A DNA stretch of 33,060 nucleotides, taken from Escherichia coli (lineage in GTDB: Bacteria > Pseudomonadota > Gammaproteobacteria > Enterobacterales > Enterobacteriaceae). The translations under genes were made by a program, and so were the position numbers. Positions 2,751 through 25,974 of this stretch are shown one piece after another (positions within the stretch are counted from its first letter, which is position 1; the number at the start of each line of letters is the position of its first letter). The notes under the pieces are model-generated. The model made no database searches and had not been told where the DNA came from. It saw only the letters and a program-made list of their open reading frames with translations. The DNA is taken from the NCBI RefSeq assembly GCF_003334315.1, contig NZ_QOWR01000052.1; one strand, written 5' to 3'.

Positions 2751-4081
2751 CACGCCAGTTTCAGATCCCGGGTCATGTTTTCCACGTTGTTTTCGTGGAT
2801 CACCACGTTGTCTTCGATACGAATGCCGCCGAACGGTTTCAGTGCTTCAATTTTCTGCCAGTTGAAGTGTTTGCTGAACTGCCCTTCACGCCACGGCGCC
2901 AGCAGCGATTCGATGAAGTAGATACCCGGTTCGATGGTTAACACCATGCCTGGCTGGAGAATACGGGTGCAGCGCAGGTACGGATATTTTGCCGGTGCCG
3001 CGAGATGCGTACCGCTATCATCCTGCATAAAACCAGCGACATCATGCACCTGGAGGCCCAGCGGATGGCCGATACCGTGCGGCATAAACGGTCCGGTGAG
3101 ATCGTTTTCGACCATCGCTTCTTCACTCATATCGGTGATGATTTGATGTTTACGCAGCAATTTGGCGATGCGCTGATGGAACTGGATGTGGTAATCCACA
3201 TAGCTGACGCCAGCTTTCATGGTGGCGATCAGCGCCAGTTGTTCATCATTTACGTCTTTCACCAGCTGTGCGTAGTCGTTGTCGCTTTTTGCCGACCAGG
3301 TACGGGTCAGGTCAGCCGCATAGCCGTTATATTCGGCCCCGGCATCCAGCAGGAAGCTGCGCATCTCTTCCGGCGCCTGATGATCCAGTTTGGTGTAATG
3401 CAGCACCGCAGCGTGTTCGTTGAGCGCCACAATGTTGCTGTAAGGTACGTCGGTATCACGATGACCGGTCGCGGTCAGATAGGCAATATTGATATCGAAC
3501 TCGCTCATGCCAGAACGGAACGCTTCTTCTGCCGCACGATGACCGTTGACCGCCATTTTCTGCGCTTCACGCATACAGGCCAGTTCGTACTCGGTTTTGA
3601 AGGAGCGGTAGTAATGCAGGTAGTCGATCACCCCTTTCGGGTTGATGTTGCTGGCCTCAATACCCAGTTGCAGCGCACGTTCTGGCACCGGACCGATATA
3701 ACCGATATTGCCGCGCGCAGCAGGCAGCAGGCTACCAATGCCATCGGCTTTCGGCAGCGCGATCACTTCCACATCTTCAGTCCAGAAGGAGGTCGGCAGC
3801 GGTTCGACGTTGTGCCAGTAATCAACCGGCAGATAAAACCACAGTTTCGGCTTGTTCACACCATCCACCAGCAACCAGCAGTTTGGCACCTGAGTTACCG
3901 GCACCCACGCTTTGAATTGCGGGTTCACTTTAAACGGATAGGGATGATCGTCGAGAAAAACATTGAACAGCTCGCCGGAGTGAATAAGTAACGCATCCAG
4001 CTTGAAGCGCGCCAGCGCATCGCGAGTCCGTTCTTGTAAGGTAGCTATATGATTTTTATAGAGCGAGGCCAGTGATTCCAT
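2750..4081 (-). CDS. pepQ: Xaa-Pro dipeptidase (prolidase) PepQ
   Basis: 443-aa [29 protein letters not shown]... with M24 metallopeptidase-type HxxGHxxGLxxHD region; divergent from fadB. Confidence 0.92.
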
Positions 4082-19832: not shown

Positions 19833-22091
19833 CCCCCGACGCAAATTCTGCGCCGCCTGCACCATGTTCGCCAGTGCCGCGCGGGTTTCTGGCCAGCCGC
19901 GCGTTTTCAGGCCACAGTCCGGGTTGACCCACAGGCGCTCTGCCGGAATGCGTTTTGCCGCTTTCTTCAGCAAGGCTTCAATCCATTCCACGCTCGGTAC
20001 GTTTGGCGAGTGAATGTCATAGACGCCAGGACCGATTTCATTTGGATAATCAAACTCTTCAAACGACTCCAGCAACTCCATGTCGGAACGCGAGGTTTCG
20101 ATGGTGATGACGTCTGCGTCCAGCGCCGCAATCGAATCCATGATGTCGTTGAACTCGCAATAACACATGTGAGTGTGGATTTGTGTGTCATCTTTCGCCA
20201 CGGCGGCGTTGATACGGAAGGCCTCTACGCCCCACTGGAGATACGCATCCCAGTCGCTACGACGCAGCGGTAAACCTTCGCGCAGCGCCGGTTCGTCAAT
20301 CTGGATGATGCCAATTCCAGCGGCTTCCAGATCGGCCACTTCATCACGCAGCGCCAGCGCAATCTGTTTGGCGATGGTTTCACGGCTGACATCTTCACGC
20401 GGGAACGACCAGCAGAGTATGGTCACCGGCCCCGTCAGCATCCCTTTCACCGGTTTGTCGGTCAGCGATTGCGCATACTTCGCCCACTCCACGGTAATCG
20501 GTGCCGGGCGGCTAATGTCACCAATGACAATCGGTGGCTTCACGCAGCGGGAACCGTAGCTCTGTACCCAACCGTTTTGCGTAAAGACAAATCCGTCGAG
20601 GTGCTCGCCAAAGTATTCCACCATGTCATTACGCTCGGCCTCGCCATGTACCAGCACATCCAGTCCCAAACGTTCCTGCTCAACAATGGCCTGCTTGATA
20701 TGTTCCGCAATGCCCGTGCGGTAGTTGTTGGCGTCGAGATTGCCCTTTTTGAAATCCAGACGCAGGGTACGAATTTCCGTGGTTTGCGGGAAGGAACCAA
20801 TCGTGGTGGTCGGCCACGCTGGCAGTTTAAAACGCGCACGCTGGGCTTCAGCACGCACTTCATAGACATTCGCACGCTGGCTGTCCTGGGCGGTGATCGC
20901 CGCCAGACGCTTTTCTACCGCCGGATTATGTACGCGGGTAGAGTGACGACGTGCCTGAATCGGGGCGCTCCACTCTGCCAGAGCTGCCGTGTCACCACTG
21001 TTCAGCGCATCGCGCAGCAGTGCCAGTTCATGGCATTTTTGTAGGGCGAAGGCAAACCAGCTTTTCACTTCTGCATCAAGACGCGTTTCCACGCTCAGGT
21101 CGATGGGGCTGTGCAGCAACGAGCAGGAAGATGCCACCCACAAATCACGTTTGCCGACAATGTCCTTAATTTGCGCATATTTCTCGGTAAGATCGGCGCG
21201 CCAGACGTTACGACCATTGATCAGACCCGCAGACAGCAACCAGTCAGAAGGCAGGCGCTTGTGCAGTTCAGCAACGTCATCTTTACCATGTACGAGGTCA
21301 ACATGCAGACCCTGAACAGGCAGCGCAGTAATCGTGTCGAGATTTGGCGTTACGCCTTCAAAATAGGTGGTCAGCAGCAGTTTCACCTGTCCCTGGAGCG
21401 CGTCGTAAGCGGGTTTGTATGCGTCCAGCCACGCCTGTGGTAGTTCCAGTACCAGCGCGGGTTCATCAATCTGTACCCACTCGATGCCGCGTTTCGCCAG
21501 TTCTGCCAGCACTTGCTGATAAACCGGCAGAATGTCGTTCAGCAGGCTCAGGCGGTCAAATTGTTCACCTTTCACTTTCCCCAGCCACAGCCAGGTAACC
21601 GGCCCCAGCAGCACAGGTTTCACCTTGTGGCCCAGCGCCAGCGCCTCGTCCACTTCGTCCAGCAGCTGCGTCCAGGTCAGTTTGAACTGTTGGCCTTTAA
21701 CGAACTCCGGCACCATGTAGTGATAGTTGGTGTTAAACCATTTGGTCATTTCCGCTGCCGCCGCAGGTTCGCCAGTCGGCGCACGTCCACGACCAATACG
21801 GAACAGGGTGTCGATATCTACCGAACCATCTTTGTTCTGATGACGCGCCGGAACGTTACCCAGCAGCAGACTGGTGGTCAGTACATGATCGTACCAGGCA
21901 AAATCGCCCACCGGCAGCAGGTCGATACCCGCTTGCTTTTGTTGATCCCAGTGACGAGCACGCAATTCACGCCCTACCGCCAGCAGTTCTTCACGCGTGG
22001 AGTTCCCCGCCCAATAACTTTCTTGCGCTTTTTTCAGCTCGCGACGCAGGCCAACGCGAGGGAAACCGAGGGTGTGATTCAATATTGTCAT
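19830..22091 (-). CDS. metE: cobalamin-independent methionine synthase MetE
   Basis: 753-aa [51 protein letters not shown]... Confidence 0.95.
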
Positions 22092-22327
22092 TTTTTCTTC
22101 CTCTAATTATATGTAAATCCTATGGATTTTGAATTTAGGGAAGGCGGCAAGTTTATTCATCCCCGGGAGCTTACTGAAGTAAGTGACCGGGGTGGAGAAA
22201 CGCAGCCAACGCACCATAAATTTAAAAGACGAAGGATTTTAGCCGTCCAGATGTTTACACATCCATAATTGGCGGTTACTGTATATTCCTCAAGCGCAAA
22301 TTATTCATGCCGAAGTGAAGGACTTTC
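22092..22327. promoter_or_regulatory. metE-metR divergent control region (promoters plus MetR/MetJ operator sites expected)
   Basis: 236-bp AT-rich intergenic region between divergent metE and metR; contains a TGAA-N5-TTCA motif (22316-22328) and AGACG-like met-box fragments (22226-22250). Individual sites were not resolved. Confidence 0.55.
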
Positions 22328-23281
22328 ATGATCGAAGTAAAACACCTGAAAACGCTACAAGCGTTGCGGAACTGCGGCTCGCTCGCAGCCGCTGCGGCGA
22401 CGTTGCATCAGACGCAATCCGCCCTGTCTCACCAGTTTAGCGATCTGGAACAACGCCTTGGCTTCCGGCTATTTGTGCGTAAGAGCCAGCCGCTACGCTT
22501 TACACCGCAGGGAGAAATCCTGTTGCAACTGGCAAACCAGGTACTGCCGCAAATTAGCCAGGCCCTGCAAGCCTGCAATGAACCGCAGCAGACGCGTCTG
22601 CGCATTGCCATTGAGTGCCATAGCTGTATTCAGTGGCTGACACCCGCGTTAGAAAATTTCCATAAGAACTGGCCGCAGGTAGAGATGGATTTTAAATCGG
22701 GCGTGACATTTGACCCGCAGCCCGCCTTGCAACAGGGAGAGCTGGATCTGGTAATGACGTCCGATATTCTGCCGCGCAGTGGCCTGCATTATTCGCCGAT
22801 GTTCGACTATGAAGTGCGTCTGGTGTTAGCACCTGACCATCCACTGGCGGCGAAAACGCGAATTACACCGGAAGATCTCGCCAGCGAGACGCTATTAATT
22901 TATCCGGTGCAGCGTAGTCGACTGGATGTCTGGCGGCATTTTCTTCAGCCGGCAGGCGTCAGCCCGTCACTGAAAAGCGTCGATAACACCTTATTGTTGA
23001 TTCAGATGGTTGCCGCGCGGATGGGTATTGCCGCGCTACCGCATTGGGTAGTAGAGAGTTTTGAGCGCCAGGGTCTGGTGGTGACCAAAACCCTGGGCGA
23101 AGGCTTGTGGAGCCGACTGTACGCCGCCGTGCGCGATGGCGAGCAGCGTCAGCCAGTTACGGAAGCGTTTATTCGCTCAGCGCGCAATCACGCCTGCGAT
23201 CATCTGCCGTTTGTGAAGAGCGCGGAGCGACCCACTTACGATGCACCCACAGTGAGGCCAGGATCACCAGCGCGCCTGTAA
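22328..23281 (+). CDS. metR: LysR-family transcriptional activator MetR
   Basis: 317-aa [57 protein letters not shown]... with N-terminal HTH. Confidence 0.93.
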
Positions 23282-24068
23282 TAAACGTTGGCCAGTGCGG
23301 CTGTTGGTGCCAGATAGCCAGGTTTACCAGCAGCCCTGCCGGAACGTGCATATTATTCATAATGCCCAGCGTTCCGGCGTCCACCTGCGTCGCGCCGTAG
23401 TTCCACATAAAGTAGCCAATCCCGGAAGCCACCACGCCAAGAAACACCAGAATGCCCCATTGCAGCGTGGTTTGCGGCATTTTCTGCGCATTTCCCAGCA
23501 AGAACCATGCAATCACTGCCACCAGAAACGCGCCAAGATAGAACCACGCAAAGGCGTTATGCTGTGGCATCGGGCGAGTTTCCATCAGGCGTTTGTAACC
23601 CACCATGCCAATGGCAAAAGTGATATTGGAGAGTTGCACCAGCAGCAAGCCAGTCCAGAAATGGTCGGTGACCTGATCATAGCGAATAATCCCGGCACCA
23701 ATCACCGCCAGCAAGGCGCTAAAGGCATAGCCCCAGCGCAGACGGCGCTTACTCATGATGTCATAAATCAGCGTGATGTAGAGCGGCGTCAGCACGGTGA
23801 ACAGCAGCAGCTCGGAAACCGTCAGGTAGAGATAAGCGCGGAAACTCAGCATATACATCACGCCAAGCTGCATCGCGCCCACCAGCATATACAGGCCGAC
23901 CGTTTTCAGGCTATTGCCACGGGTACGCAGAAACGGCAGAAAAACGAGTGCCGCCAGGCCAACGCGCACCAGCACCGCAAAATAGCTATCGACGTGCCCC
24001 GCAAGGTACTCGCCATAAAAGCTAAAGGAGAAGGCCCACAGAATCGTGGTGATGATAAGTAGCGCCAC
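23169..24068 (-). CDS. yigM: DMT/EamA-family inner membrane transporter YigM (biotin transporter BioP)
   Basis: 299-aa ten-[51 protein letters not shown]...; its 3' end overlaps the metR 3' end by 113 bp on the opposite strand. Confidence 0.85.
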
Positions 24069-24143
24069 AATGGAAAACTCTTTGATTAACGGGTATCCAT
24101 TGTAGCGAAGTATCAGGTTGACAACTGACCAAATAAAGAACGA

Positions 24144-24944
24144 TTACGATAAATAGAGTTTACGCAGATAATGCGGCACCGCGTCGTCGGCATTAGTACC
24201 AATCACTTCCAGCTCGGGATGAAGGTCTTTCAGACGCTGGTGCGCACTGCCCATAATGCAGCCTTTCCCCGCCATCGACAGCATTTCGGCGTCGTTCATC
24301 CCGTCACCAAACGCAATACAATCCTTCAGGCTGTAGCCCAGTTTCTTCGCCACCGCTTCCAGCGCATGGCCTTTTGAAACGCCGCCCGCCATCACTTCCA
24401 GACAGGTTAAGGTAGAGAAACTGACGTTGACGCGATCGCCCCAACGAGCGTTAATCGCCTGCTCCAGCGGCAGCAGTTGTTCATGGGAATCGCAGGTGAA
24501 GAACACTTTGCTGACGCCTTCCGGCTCCAGTAATCCAGGCTCATACAGCGCATATTGGAACACCGCTTCTTTAAAAAAGCGCATCTCTTCCGGGCGATGG
24601 CGATTCATAAACCATTCGTCGTCGCGATAAACGTTAGTAATGATGTCCGGATTGTCGTTGACTACGCCAAACAGATCGCTGGCAATGTCGCGATCCAGGT
24701 TATGAGCAAAAATCAGATTACCATCCAGATCGTGAACGCGCGCACCATTGGAGGTAATCATGTAAGACTTAATCTCCAGATTATCGCGAATTTGCCCCAC
24801 ATCAACGTGGTGACGACCGGTCGCAAACACAAAGTTGATGCCGCGCGCGGTGAGCAGCTTCAGAGTTTCTTTGGCGTAAGGGGATAACGTATGGTCGGGA
24901 GAAAGTAACGTGCCATCTAAATCAGACGCAACAACCTGGTACAT
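24144..24944 (-). CDS. yigL: HAD-family (Cof-type) sugar/pyridoxal phosphate phosphatase YigL
   Basis: ORF MYQVVASDLDGTLLSPDHTLSPYAKETLKLLTARGINFVFATGRHH... (266 aa from ATG 24944) with the DxDGT HAD motif; the six-frame track extends 42 codons upstream into pldB. Confidence 0.9.
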   Translation of the reverse strand: MYQVVASDLDGTLLSPDHTLSPYAKETLKLLTARGINFVFATGRHHVDVGQIRDNLEIKSYMITSNGARVHDLDGNLIFAHNLDRDIASDLFGVVNDNPDIITNVYRDDEWFMNRHRPEEMRFFKEAVFQYALYEPGLLEPEGVSKVFFTCDSHEQLLPLEQAINARWGDRVNVSFSTLTCLEVMAGGVSKGHALEAVAKKLGYSLKDCIAFGDGMNDAEMLSMAGKGCIMGSAHQRLKDLHPELEVIGTNADDAVPHYLRKLYLS

Positions 24945-24951
24945 AAGAAAT

Positions 24952-25974
24952 TTAAACCTCTGTAGAGCGGTTTCCGCTGGGTGAGTTATGCCTGTTGAAA
25001 AAATCAACGATGGCGTGGAGCGCGACTGAGCGCATTGCGTCCTTTTCAAAAAGGATCTCATGGTAAGCACCTTTAATTACCAACGGCCGTCCTCCTTCGA
25101 CAGGATGGCCCGCGGCGGTGCGGAGTTCACAAAAACGGTCATGCATGCGGTTATCCACCACGCGTTCCTCTTCAGCCTGCAAGAGAAGCGTTGGCGTGGC
25201 GTCATCACCCGCACCGGCTAACACCTGTTCGCCAGCCAGAATACTTTCGCGTACCCAATGGTAGGTCGGCCCACCGACGCGAATCGTTGGGTCATCAGCA
25301 TAGAAGCGTAAGTTACGTCGATATCGCTGTCTGCTGTGGGTCAGTACGTTGATAGCAAACGGCAACGCGCGCCAGCGCCCGGTGCCTATTGCATAGCCAT
25401 CACGGAAACGTGGATGCGCTTCGGCCCAGTTGAGGATCTGCCGTGCCATAAATGACGGCATACGAATCACGATCCCAAACATTGGCGCAGTTAGCGCAAT
25501 GGCGTCACATACACCTGGATGGCGTTGCAGAAATAATGTGGAGATCGCACCGCCCATCGAATGTGCCAGTATATAGCGTTTACGCCACGGACCGGGCTGA
25601 ACCTCCTGCTGCCAGAATGCCGCCAGATCATCAACATAATCATTAAAGCGATTAACATGCCCGAGATGCGGATCGGCTAACAGGCGACCGGAACGTCCCT
25701 GCCCGCGATGGTCGATGATTAAGACATCAAACCCCAAATGGAACAGGTCATAGGCCAGTTCCGCATATTTTACGTAGCTCTCAATACGCCCCGGGCAGAT
25801 GACTACCACCCGGTCATGGTGCTGTGCGCGAAAACGGACAAAGCGCACCGGAATGTCATCCACACCAGTAAACTCTGCTTCATCACGCTGACGCCAGAAA
25901 TCAGTCAGCGGTCCCATGGTAAAAGCAGCAAACGCGTTTTCTCTTGTTTCCCAGTCTTTTTGCTGCTGAAACAT
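24952..25974 (-). CDS. pldB: lysophospholipase L2 (PldB)
   Basis: 340-aa ORF MFQQQKDWETRENAFAAFTMGPLTDFWRQRDEAEF... with alpha/beta hydrolase GHSMGG motif; stop lies 7 nt before the yigL start. Confidence 0.92.
   Translation of the reverse strand: MFQQQKDWETRENAFAAFTMGPLTDFWRQRDEAEFTGVDDIPVRFVRFRAQHHDRVVVICPGRIESYVKYAELAYDLFHLGFDVLIIDHRGQGRSGRLLADPHLGHVNRFNDYVDDLAAFWQQEVQPGPWRKRYILAHSMGGAISTLFLQRHPGVCDAIALTAPMFGIVIRMPSFMARQILNWAEAHPRFRDGYAIGTGRWRALPFAINVLTHSRQRYRRNLRFYADDPTIRVGGPTYHWVRESILAGEQVLAGAGDDATPTLLLQAEEERVVDNRMHDRFCELRTAAGHPVEGGRPLVIKGAYHEILFEKDAMRSVALHAIVDFFNRHNSPSGNRSTEV

Follow-up and report, generated by a model that had tools for sequence, protein, structure and literature searches.

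This locus raises the question of why two unrelated genes of Escherichia coli, metR, which encodes a methionine regulator, and yigM (bioP), which encodes a biotin transporter, should each end inside the coding sequence of the other, and whether such a long tail-to-tail overlap is a regulatory device or an accident that has been kept. We therefore asked whether both reading frames are real, how old the arrangement is, which of the two proteins is under selection in each part of the shared DNA, and how the two converging transcripts might end. The window, i.e., the whole stretch of DNA that we analyzed (33,060 nucleotides of contig NZ_QOWR01000052.1), contains the metE-metR-yigM(bioP)-yigL-pldB region of E. 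coli, and all coordinates given below are positions in this window.

The two genes and the geometry of their overlap

The features that define the overlap are the following:
22328-23281, + strand: metR coding sequence, 317 aa, LysR-type activator of metE/metH (ORF list and RefSeq)
23169-24068, − strand: yigM/bioP coding sequence, 299 aa, GTG start (ORF list; RefSeq 'bioP: biotin transporter')
23169-23281, both strands: tail-to-tail coding overlap of metR and yigM, 113 bp (sequence and RefSeq)

Both metR and yigM are genuine protein-coding genes. MetR matches the Pfam domains HTH_1 (aa 5-63) and LysR_substrate (aa 86-288, E 4.8e-48), and the PDB entries 5fo5 (the MetR DNA-binding domain) and 4ab5 (the effector domain of Neisseria MetR), the latter of which aligns to aa 296. 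YigM/BioP is a 10-helix biotin transporter of the EamA/DMT type, with two EamA domains in Pfam, the second of which ends at aa 275, and with thousands of homologues in a protein search; its AF2 model has a mean pLDDT of 94, and the last modeled helix spans residues 259-298. The RefSeq coordinates in strain 300709 are identical to those that we derived from the open reading frames, the same overlap is annotated in the RefSeq entry of K-12 MG1655 (bioP at 4011076-4011975 and metR at 4011863-4012816), and the metR-yigM region was found in 5424 of 5426 complete E. coli genomes. These findings confirm the coordinates, the gene identities and the 113-bp overlap proposed in the first-pass annotation of this DNA, which had also placed the last ~37 codons of each gene in the shared segment. 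The overlap begins at codon 281 of MetR and at codon 263 of YigM, and in either frame it opens with a split codon, after which come 36 sense codons and the stop. Each stop codon thus sits within the coding sequence of the partner gene, and codon positions 1, 2 and 3 of metR lie opposite positions 1, 3 and 2 of yigM, respectively. An ORF and in-frame-stop check of the two E. coli genes found no earlier in-frame stop and no frameshift, i.e., both stop codons had been assigned correctly; the metR stop (TAA, 23279-23281) has another TAA directly behind it in the same frame, at 23282-23284.

Our comparison with homologous proteins places the end of the conserved MetR core near Arg301 (~23230) and the end of the YigM core near Val279 (~23232), just past helix 10, so that the cores abut almost to the base and leave no spacer between them. 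Beyond these points MetR runs on for ~16 residues and YigM for ~20. Matches to YigM homologues of 30-50% identity stop at residues 270-286, and the segment following the nearly invariant Gly265, which is 34 residues long in E. coli, has a median length of 23 residues among homologues and is equally long in only 1 of 70. The pLDDT of the YigM model falls to 78 and 71 in the final two blocks of ten residues, through which helix 10 continues, and the tail is rich in Arg and Asp. Natural YigM variants of 284-285 aa also exist, in a Salmonella serovar and in a lineage of gut isolates (42 and 66 database members).

Run-ons of this size are not surprising. Reading in this antisense phase encounters only 8 stops over the 317 codons of metR and 16 over the 299 codons of yigM, and with stops this sparse a frame would be expected to continue for 16-20 codons beyond the conserved core. 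Chance would produce or fail to produce the observed run-ons of 20 and 16 codons about equally often, and the length of 113 bp is therefore not beyond chance, in that nothing special is left to explain once both cores abut.

Conservation and probable loss of the overlap in Enterobacterales

We surveyed the Enterobacteriaceae by a contig scan with one genome per species, taking the 80 closest species, from genera that include Escherichia, Salmonella, Citrobacter, Klebsiella, Enterobacter, Kosakonia, Raoultella, Kluyvera and Siccibacter. In all 80 species metR and yigM are convergent and overlapping, and the shared segment contains no indels; the overlap measures 113 bp in 70 species, and in the other ten it is 116 bp (7 species), 98 bp (2) or 68 bp (1). 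Outgroups were cluster representatives together with the contigs encoding them, and within Enterobacterales this sample covers Yersiniaceae, Pectobacteriaceae and Erwiniaceae. Family assignment was checked for Rahnella, Mixta and Dickeya, and the remaining outgroup genera we take to be placed as in established taxonomy. The outgroups are arranged as follows:
Yersinia (Yersiniaceae): 113-bp overlap; MetR 317 aa, YigM 299 aa
Rahnella (Yersiniaceae): 95-bp overlap; MetR 311 aa, YigM 299 aa
Pectobacterium (Pectobacteriaceae): 95-bp overlap; MetR 311 aa, YigM 299 aa
Dickeya (Pectobacteriaceae): 98-bp overlap; MetR 312 aa, YigM 299 aa
Serratia sp. (FGI94-like; Yersiniaceae): 45-bp spacer with a GC-rich hairpin; MetR 316 aa, YigM 286 aa
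Serratia liquefaciens (Yersiniaceae): 32-bp spacer with a GC-rich hairpin; MetR 316 aa, YigM 287 aa
Mixta calida (Erwiniaceae): 476-bp spacer containing a small ORF; MetR 307 aa, YigM 282 aa
Pantoea sp. B65 (Erwiniaceae): a DUF1456 gene between metR and yigM; MetR 313 aa, YigM 287 aa

Counted from the metR start, the yigM stop is at +841 in E. coli and also in Yersinia, Rahnella and Pectobacterium, and the junction of Phe-Ile and stop in Dickeya is the same as in E. coli. The overlap is thus conserved well beyond close strains, in at least three families of Enterobacterales and in a single register. No metR gene was found next to the yigM homologue in Vibrio, in Microbulbifer or in one further lineage, where the homologues are 49-51% identical.

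One of the two stop codons is placed as follows:
23169-23171, − strand: yigM stop TAA, read on the complement of MetR Phe281 (TTT) and Ile282 (ATT), of which it takes the last two bases and the first base, respectively

These three columns are invariant across the 80 species. Since TTY followed by a codon that starts with A reads TAA or TGA on the opposite strand, the conserved Phe-Ile of MetR fixes a stop in the yigM frame, and by this reasoning from the genetic code the yigM stop appears to be held in place by MetR Phe281-Ile282. The metR stop hinges on a third position of yigM, and where it has shifted, as in some species, MetR is 312 or 318 aa long; the overall range of MetR length in Enterobacterales is 307-318 aa.

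The first-pass annotation had held that an orthologue ending before the overlap would count against it, and this is half the case, in that the YigM proteins of the non-overlapping Serratia, Mixta and Pantoea, at 282-287 aa, end before most of the overlap. In Serratia and Pantoea MetR is still 313-316 aa long and its tail Pro-rich despite the absence of an overlap, a retained length that may hint at a use for the proline-rich tail.

Since Erwiniaceae and Serratia branch, in the accepted phylogeny, from within lineages that have the overlap, the simplest history is one early origin in Enterobacterales followed by at least two later resolutions. By parsimony over a few outgroups, and with a modest similarity test, we infer that the overlap is ancestral and was resolved in Serratia and in Erwiniaceae. 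The similarity test concerns the MetR tails of Serratia, RPSAGVASVKPLASQP or RPNAAPPVAKPLAPQP, which resemble those of overlapping species (RPNAGVPTVRT in Rahnella and RSNGGAPITKPLSQLPQ in Yersinia), where the antisense of YigM helix 10 sets the sequence of the MetR tail. We compared the tail of Serratia metR with the antisense of the 3′ end of yigM from the same genome, in the register predicted from E. coli. In S. liquefaciens 29 of 63 positions are identical, a value reached by none of the 90 other registers (shuffle p = 0.0014), and in the second Serratia the count is 26 of 63 (p = 0.07). The same fixed-register test gave no signal of duplication in Mixta or Pantoea, and a free local alignment, run for a duplication origin of the separated arrangement, gave no significant similarity. 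These results lend moderate support to the view that Serratia probably resolved the overlap by duplicating the ~60-bp shared segment. The metR copy of the duplicated segment would then have drifted, and the hairpin of the spacer, which in the FGI94-like Serratia sp. is flanked by an A run, would now lie between the two copies.

Selection within the shared segment

Selection was measured by column entropies over the 80 species and by Nei-Gojobori counts over all pairs, with the following values for each part of the two proteins:
MetR 1-280 (outside the overlap): pN/pS 0.083, pS 0.54
MetR 282-296 (core within the overlap): pN/pS 0.039, pS 0.41
MetR 297-302 (junction): pN/pS 0.41, pS 0.15
MetR 303-316 (tail): pN/pS 2.16, pS 0.12
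YigM 2-262 (outside the overlap): pN/pS 0.134, pS 0.56
YigM 264-277 (helix 10, within the overlap): pN/pS 0.21, pS 0.46
YigM 278-284 (junction): pN/pS 0.58, pS 0.19
YigM 285-298 (tail): pN/pS 7.07, pS 0.024

These values, together with the entropies, divide the overlap into three segments:
23169-23215, both strands: MetR-selected segment, MetR aa 281-296, the last helix of the effector domain
23216-23237, both strands: junction in which both frames are apparently constrained, MetR 297-302/303 'KSAERP' and YigM 278-284 'WVAPRSS'
23238-23281, both strands: YigM-selected segment, YigM aa 263-277, transmembrane helix 10

In the first of these segments the variable columns across the 80 species are those that are position 3 of metR and position 2 of yigM, and the tail of YigM (aa 285-299 and the stop) would be a passenger there. 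Around the third, at ~23235-23281, the variable columns are position 3 of yigM and position 2 of metR, and here it is the tail of MetR (aa 303-317 and the stop) that appears to be the passenger. Apart from the junction, the synonymous rates of both cores within the overlap are near their values outside it. Lowered pS in both frames was found at 23216-23237 only, and not along the overlap as a whole, and dual constraint looks limited to these ~20 bp. The junction includes a near-invariant GCGGAGCGACCCA at 23222-23234 (entropies, 80 species), and of the residues that it encodes, Ala and Arg in MetR and 'WV' in YigM are retained in Serratia, Mixta and Pantoea, which have no overlap. We considered this conserved 13-mer as a DNA or RNA element and rejected it, in that the metR and yigM copies of non-overlapping species diverge in DNA while the peptides are kept.

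The first-pass annotation had proposed that the overlap constrains both protein C-termini, a claim that survives for the ~20 bp at 23216-23237 and is largely inverted elsewhere, given a pN/pS of 2.2 for the tail of MetR (303-316) and 7.1 for that of YigM (285-298). Values above 1 in the tails are a geometric outcome of the phase and no sign of positive selection. On these patterns of substitution, each core seems to evolve nearly as though the other frame were absent, with the tails read as passive antisense translation of the partner.

Transcript ends, competing explanations and related systems

A consensus scan of 22000-24400 found no terminator-like site, where shuffled sequences led us to expect 2.6, and no T run of 5 or more was found within ~300 nt downstream of either the metR or the yigM stop. 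A bidirectional intrinsic terminator (a GC-rich hairpin with A/U tracts) was likewise not found at the ends of the two genes. Folded hairpins of both 3′ regions were considered as terminators and rejected, their z-scores being no stronger than -2.0 and -2.5 and U tracts being absent, as was the best hairpin, at 23339-23377, all 8 pairs of which are intact in only 8 of the 80 species. An Rfam scan of 22000-24400 gave no match in the overlap, and two weak, sub-threshold matches in the metE-metR intergenic region. Past both stops we observe stretches that may serve as Rho loading sites:
23320-23500, + strand: C-rich, G-poor stretch past the metR stop and antisense to yigM, C/G up to 2.07 (80-nt windows); candidate Rho loading region for the metR transcript
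23030-23170, − strand: C-rich, G-poor stretch just past the yigM stop and antisense to metR, C/G up to 1.8; candidate Rho loading region for the bioP transcript

Adams et al. 2021 (PMC7815308, supplementary file 2) place a region of Rho termination at K-12 position 4011704 (+), on the bioP-sense strand, with a Rho score of 5.07 (p = 1.3e-12) and with 98 and then 21 reads in successive 800-nt windows without bicyclomycin, as against 300 and then 326 with it. This position maps to ~23440 on the − strand of the window, with a method that resolves hundreds of nucleotides. The bioP-sense transcript is thus probably ended by Rho around its 3′ end. Searching by gene name in all four of its supplementary files produced one match, yigM in file 2, and no entry on the metR strand; for the metR transcript, termination by Rho is what the C>G bias that we computed would suggest.

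The 3′-to-3′ overlap of these unrelated genes is real and ancient, and we consider it likely to be a frozen accident rather than a device. An early ancestor of Enterobacterales would have lost the spacer between metR and yigM, after which each frame would run antisense through the core of its partner to the first stop that happened to occur. Both tails would be translated, and, having no sequence selection of their own, would shift as the synonymous sites of the partner shift. As such an arrangement leaves no room for an intrinsic terminator, both transcripts would extend into the antisense of the partner and probably be ended by Rho. Several observations can be set against a frozen accident. 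Antisense coupling, if selected, could also account for retention over a long time in three families, and bioP-metR has been listed as an excludon; MetR keeps nearly its full length in Serratia and Pantoea, and the tail of YigM is modeled as helical, with a pLDDT of 71-78, and is not clearly disordered.

The alternative that survives best, and which we nevertheless regard as unlikely, is that the overlap is a selected convergent excludon, in which metR and bioP interfere through polymerase collision or RNase III and so couple methionine/SAM control to biotin uptake. Conservation of the register in Enterobacteriaceae, in Pectobacteriaceae and in part of Yersiniaceae would fit such a role, as would the lack of a terminator insulating metR from yigM. 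Biotin synthesis consumes SAM at BioC, BioA and BioB, which makes a physiological link conceivable. ExcludonFinder (NAR 2025; PMC12288877) also lists bioP-metR among 165 convergent excludons, with transcripts overlapping in at least half (≥50%) of the MG1655 RNA-seq sets, a listing that bears out the convergent transcription through the shared segment that had been predicted from the sequence. However, a coding overlap makes transcript overlap unavoidable, so that the listing is uninformative on function, and our literature search gave no reciprocal expression data for bioP-metR. There also appear to have been at least two losses of the overlap, one in Serratia and one in Erwiniaceae, with the Serratia spacers holding GC-rich hairpins instead; the yigM homologues of Vibrio, Microbulbifer and the other lineage do not adjoin metR; and the pattern of substitutions is explained by selection on the two protein cores alone.

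A more specific proposal, to which we assign a low probability, is that antisense coupling has been kept by selection, such that high transcription of metR (at low methionine, with a homocysteine signal) lowers bioP mRNA, or the reverse, and that Serratia and Erwiniaceae escaped by duplicating the segment and acquiring a hairpin spacer. If this coupling were true, biotin uptake would be tied to the supply of SAM that biotin synthesis uses.

We also find it very unlikely that the tails are functional, the Pro-rich tail of MetR in protein contacts and the basic tail of YigM in topology or stability, with dual coding along the entire overlap. The length and proline content of MetR in Serratia and Pantoea, where no overlap forces them, would suit this explanation, as would the Arg/Asp-rich composition and modeled helix of the YigM tail. 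The high pN/pS of both tails argues against it, with changes exactly at the synonymous positions of the partner, as do the shorter MetR proteins of Mixta (307 aa) and of Pectobacteriaceae and Rahnella (311-312 aa), the shorter YigM wherever the overlap is absent, the persistence of truncated natural variants, and the fact that homology to solved or distant relatives ends before the tails. Finally, an annotation or sequencing artefact, with one of the proteins ending earlier, is barely credible: long annotated overlaps are frequently misannotations and YigM orthologues are shorter outside the overlapping clades, but neither frame contains an earlier stop, the sequence is common to 5424 complete E. 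coli genomes, the ORF ends are kept in 80 species without indels, deletion of metR abolishes yigM function (PMC5120140), and the choice of start codon is irrelevant because the overlap is tail to tail.

A frozen accident of this kind still has practical consequences, in that deleting or tagging the 3′ end of either metR or yigM damages the partner gene. By the Keio design, reportedly that of Baba et al. 2006, MetR would be expected to lose everything beyond about residue 287 in the yigM deletion strain. Caution is needed with methionine phenotypes of the Keio yigM strain. The same applies to biotin phenotypes of metR mutants, since the Keio metR deletion loses biotin transport (PMC5120140). 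Our findings leave the understanding of methionine regulation and of biotin transport unchanged. For the study of gene overlaps, metR-yigM offers a clean textbook case, i.e., a long convergent overlap present in at least three families, with dual coding apparently confined to ~20 bp and with one stop that the partner appears to fix.

The overlap itself is already annotated, published and catalogued; what this analysis adds is its age, the split in selection, the chance expectation and the absence of an intrinsic terminator. Côté et al. 2016 (mBio 7:e01714-16; PMC5120140) noted that yigM 'overlaps substantially' with metR, and showed that deleting metR (the Keio strain) has the same phenotype as losing yigM, in that the deletion is synthetically lethal with bioA and confers sensitivity to MAC13772, an inhibitor of BioA. 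The K-12 pair of that study (b3828/b3827) is the same locus, with the same 113 bp, and its evolution, selection pattern and transcription termination fall outside the analysis given there.

As in the convergent excludons of PMC12288877, the mRNAs of metR and bioP are necessarily complementary, and when full length they must be so over at least 113 nt. In the usual excludon, however, the overlap is in the 3′ UTRs, often with terminators embedded in the neighboring gene, whereas here it is the coding sequences that overlap and an intrinsic terminator was not found. Moreover, an excludon takes its meaning from mutually exclusive expression and RNase III processing, both of which would be predictions for metR/bioP. 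Bidirectional intrinsic terminators occupy the same position between convergent genes, and the hairpins in the 45-bp and 32-bp spacers of Serratia look like such elements; E. coli and the other overlapping species differ, in that they have no spacer and no hairpin with a U tract on either strand.

Among the close relatives of this arrangement are the conserved 3′-extension overlaps of Pallejà, Harrington and Bork (2008, BMC Genomics 9:335, citing Rogozin et al. 2002), which arise when a stop codon is lost and which are also tail to tail and longer than 60 bp, and in which, as here, both ORFs reach past the ends of their non-overlapping orthologues. We considered the misannotated 3′ extensions of that study (group iii), in which a sequencing frameshift or a stop mutation specific to one strain makes a gene much longer than its orthologues, as a class for metR/yigM and rejected them, given that the extension is present in 5424 E. 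coli genomes and in three families, and is thus old and fixed. Pallejà et al. found 54 possibly real cases, mostly conserved among very close species only (BMC Genomics 9:335). Unlike most of these, the overlap of metR and yigM extends over at least three families of Enterobacterales in one register.

Loss of both genes in one E. coli strain

In E. coli strain Z135-6 (NZ_CP159632.1; comparison locus L002, 3001-4820), metR has lost its 3′ part and bioP (yigM) most of its length, down to the 5′ end, and a 636-bp gene annotated as encoding a hypothetical protein stands in their place. Both metR and bioP are annotated as partial pseudogenes in this strain, so that the two members of the overlapping pair are naturally knocked out together.

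Other reading frames and the metE-metR region

Two further open reading frames are present in or next to yigM in the window:

23295-24062, plus strand: open frame of 255 aa, antisense to almost the whole of yigM and in a different frame from that of metR
24144-25070, minus strand: yigL as called mechanically, 308 aa from a GTG start, overlapping pldB (24952-25974)

We take the 255-aa antisense frame to be a putative shadow ORF, such as often occurs opposite genes encoding membrane proteins. In RefSeq, yigL encodes 266 aa, which corresponds to 24144-24944 in the window, and 8 bp separate it from pldB.

The divergent metE-metR intergenic region gave two Rfam matches within 22113-22287 on the plus strand, i.e., Ysr49, with 27.7 bits and an E-value of 0.012, and V_AS5, with 26.7 bits and an E-value of 0.008. 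Both are weak, far under the gathering score, and probably arise from conservation of the control region shared by metE and metR, not from an sRNA.

Anomalous comparison records

The Dickeya-like contig from SRR11696187 (L083) contains an intact yigM ORF of 299 aa at 556-1455, with residues ~205-240 of the encoded protein not aligning with other YigM proteins. This segment looks like a compensated double frameshift, and the anomaly could stem either from faulty assembly or from decay of the gene. A record titled Chryseobacterium sp. 18061 (L056) carries a metR-yigM locus typical of the Enterobacteriaceae, with 92% (MetR) and 83% (YigM) identity to E. coli, and is probably mislabelled or contaminated.

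Loci in which metR and yigM are separated

Extra genes have been acquired between metR and yigM in the Erwiniaceae:

Mixta calida (L089), 3612-3860: ORF of 82 aa, with no match in Pfam
Pantoea sp. B65 (L091), 3551-4027: DUF1456 gene

In Serratia, the short metR-yigM spacer contains a GC-rich hairpin, GGGCAGC...GCTGCCC in S. liquefaciens (L092, spacer at 3452-3483) and CCCCGG...CCGGGG in the FGI94-like Serratia sp. (L088, spacer at 3452-3496); no such spacer hairpin is present at the same metR-yigM position in E. coli. The CCCCGG...CCGGGG hairpin of L088 has a run of A residues alongside it, and in this it resembles bidirectional intrinsic terminators.
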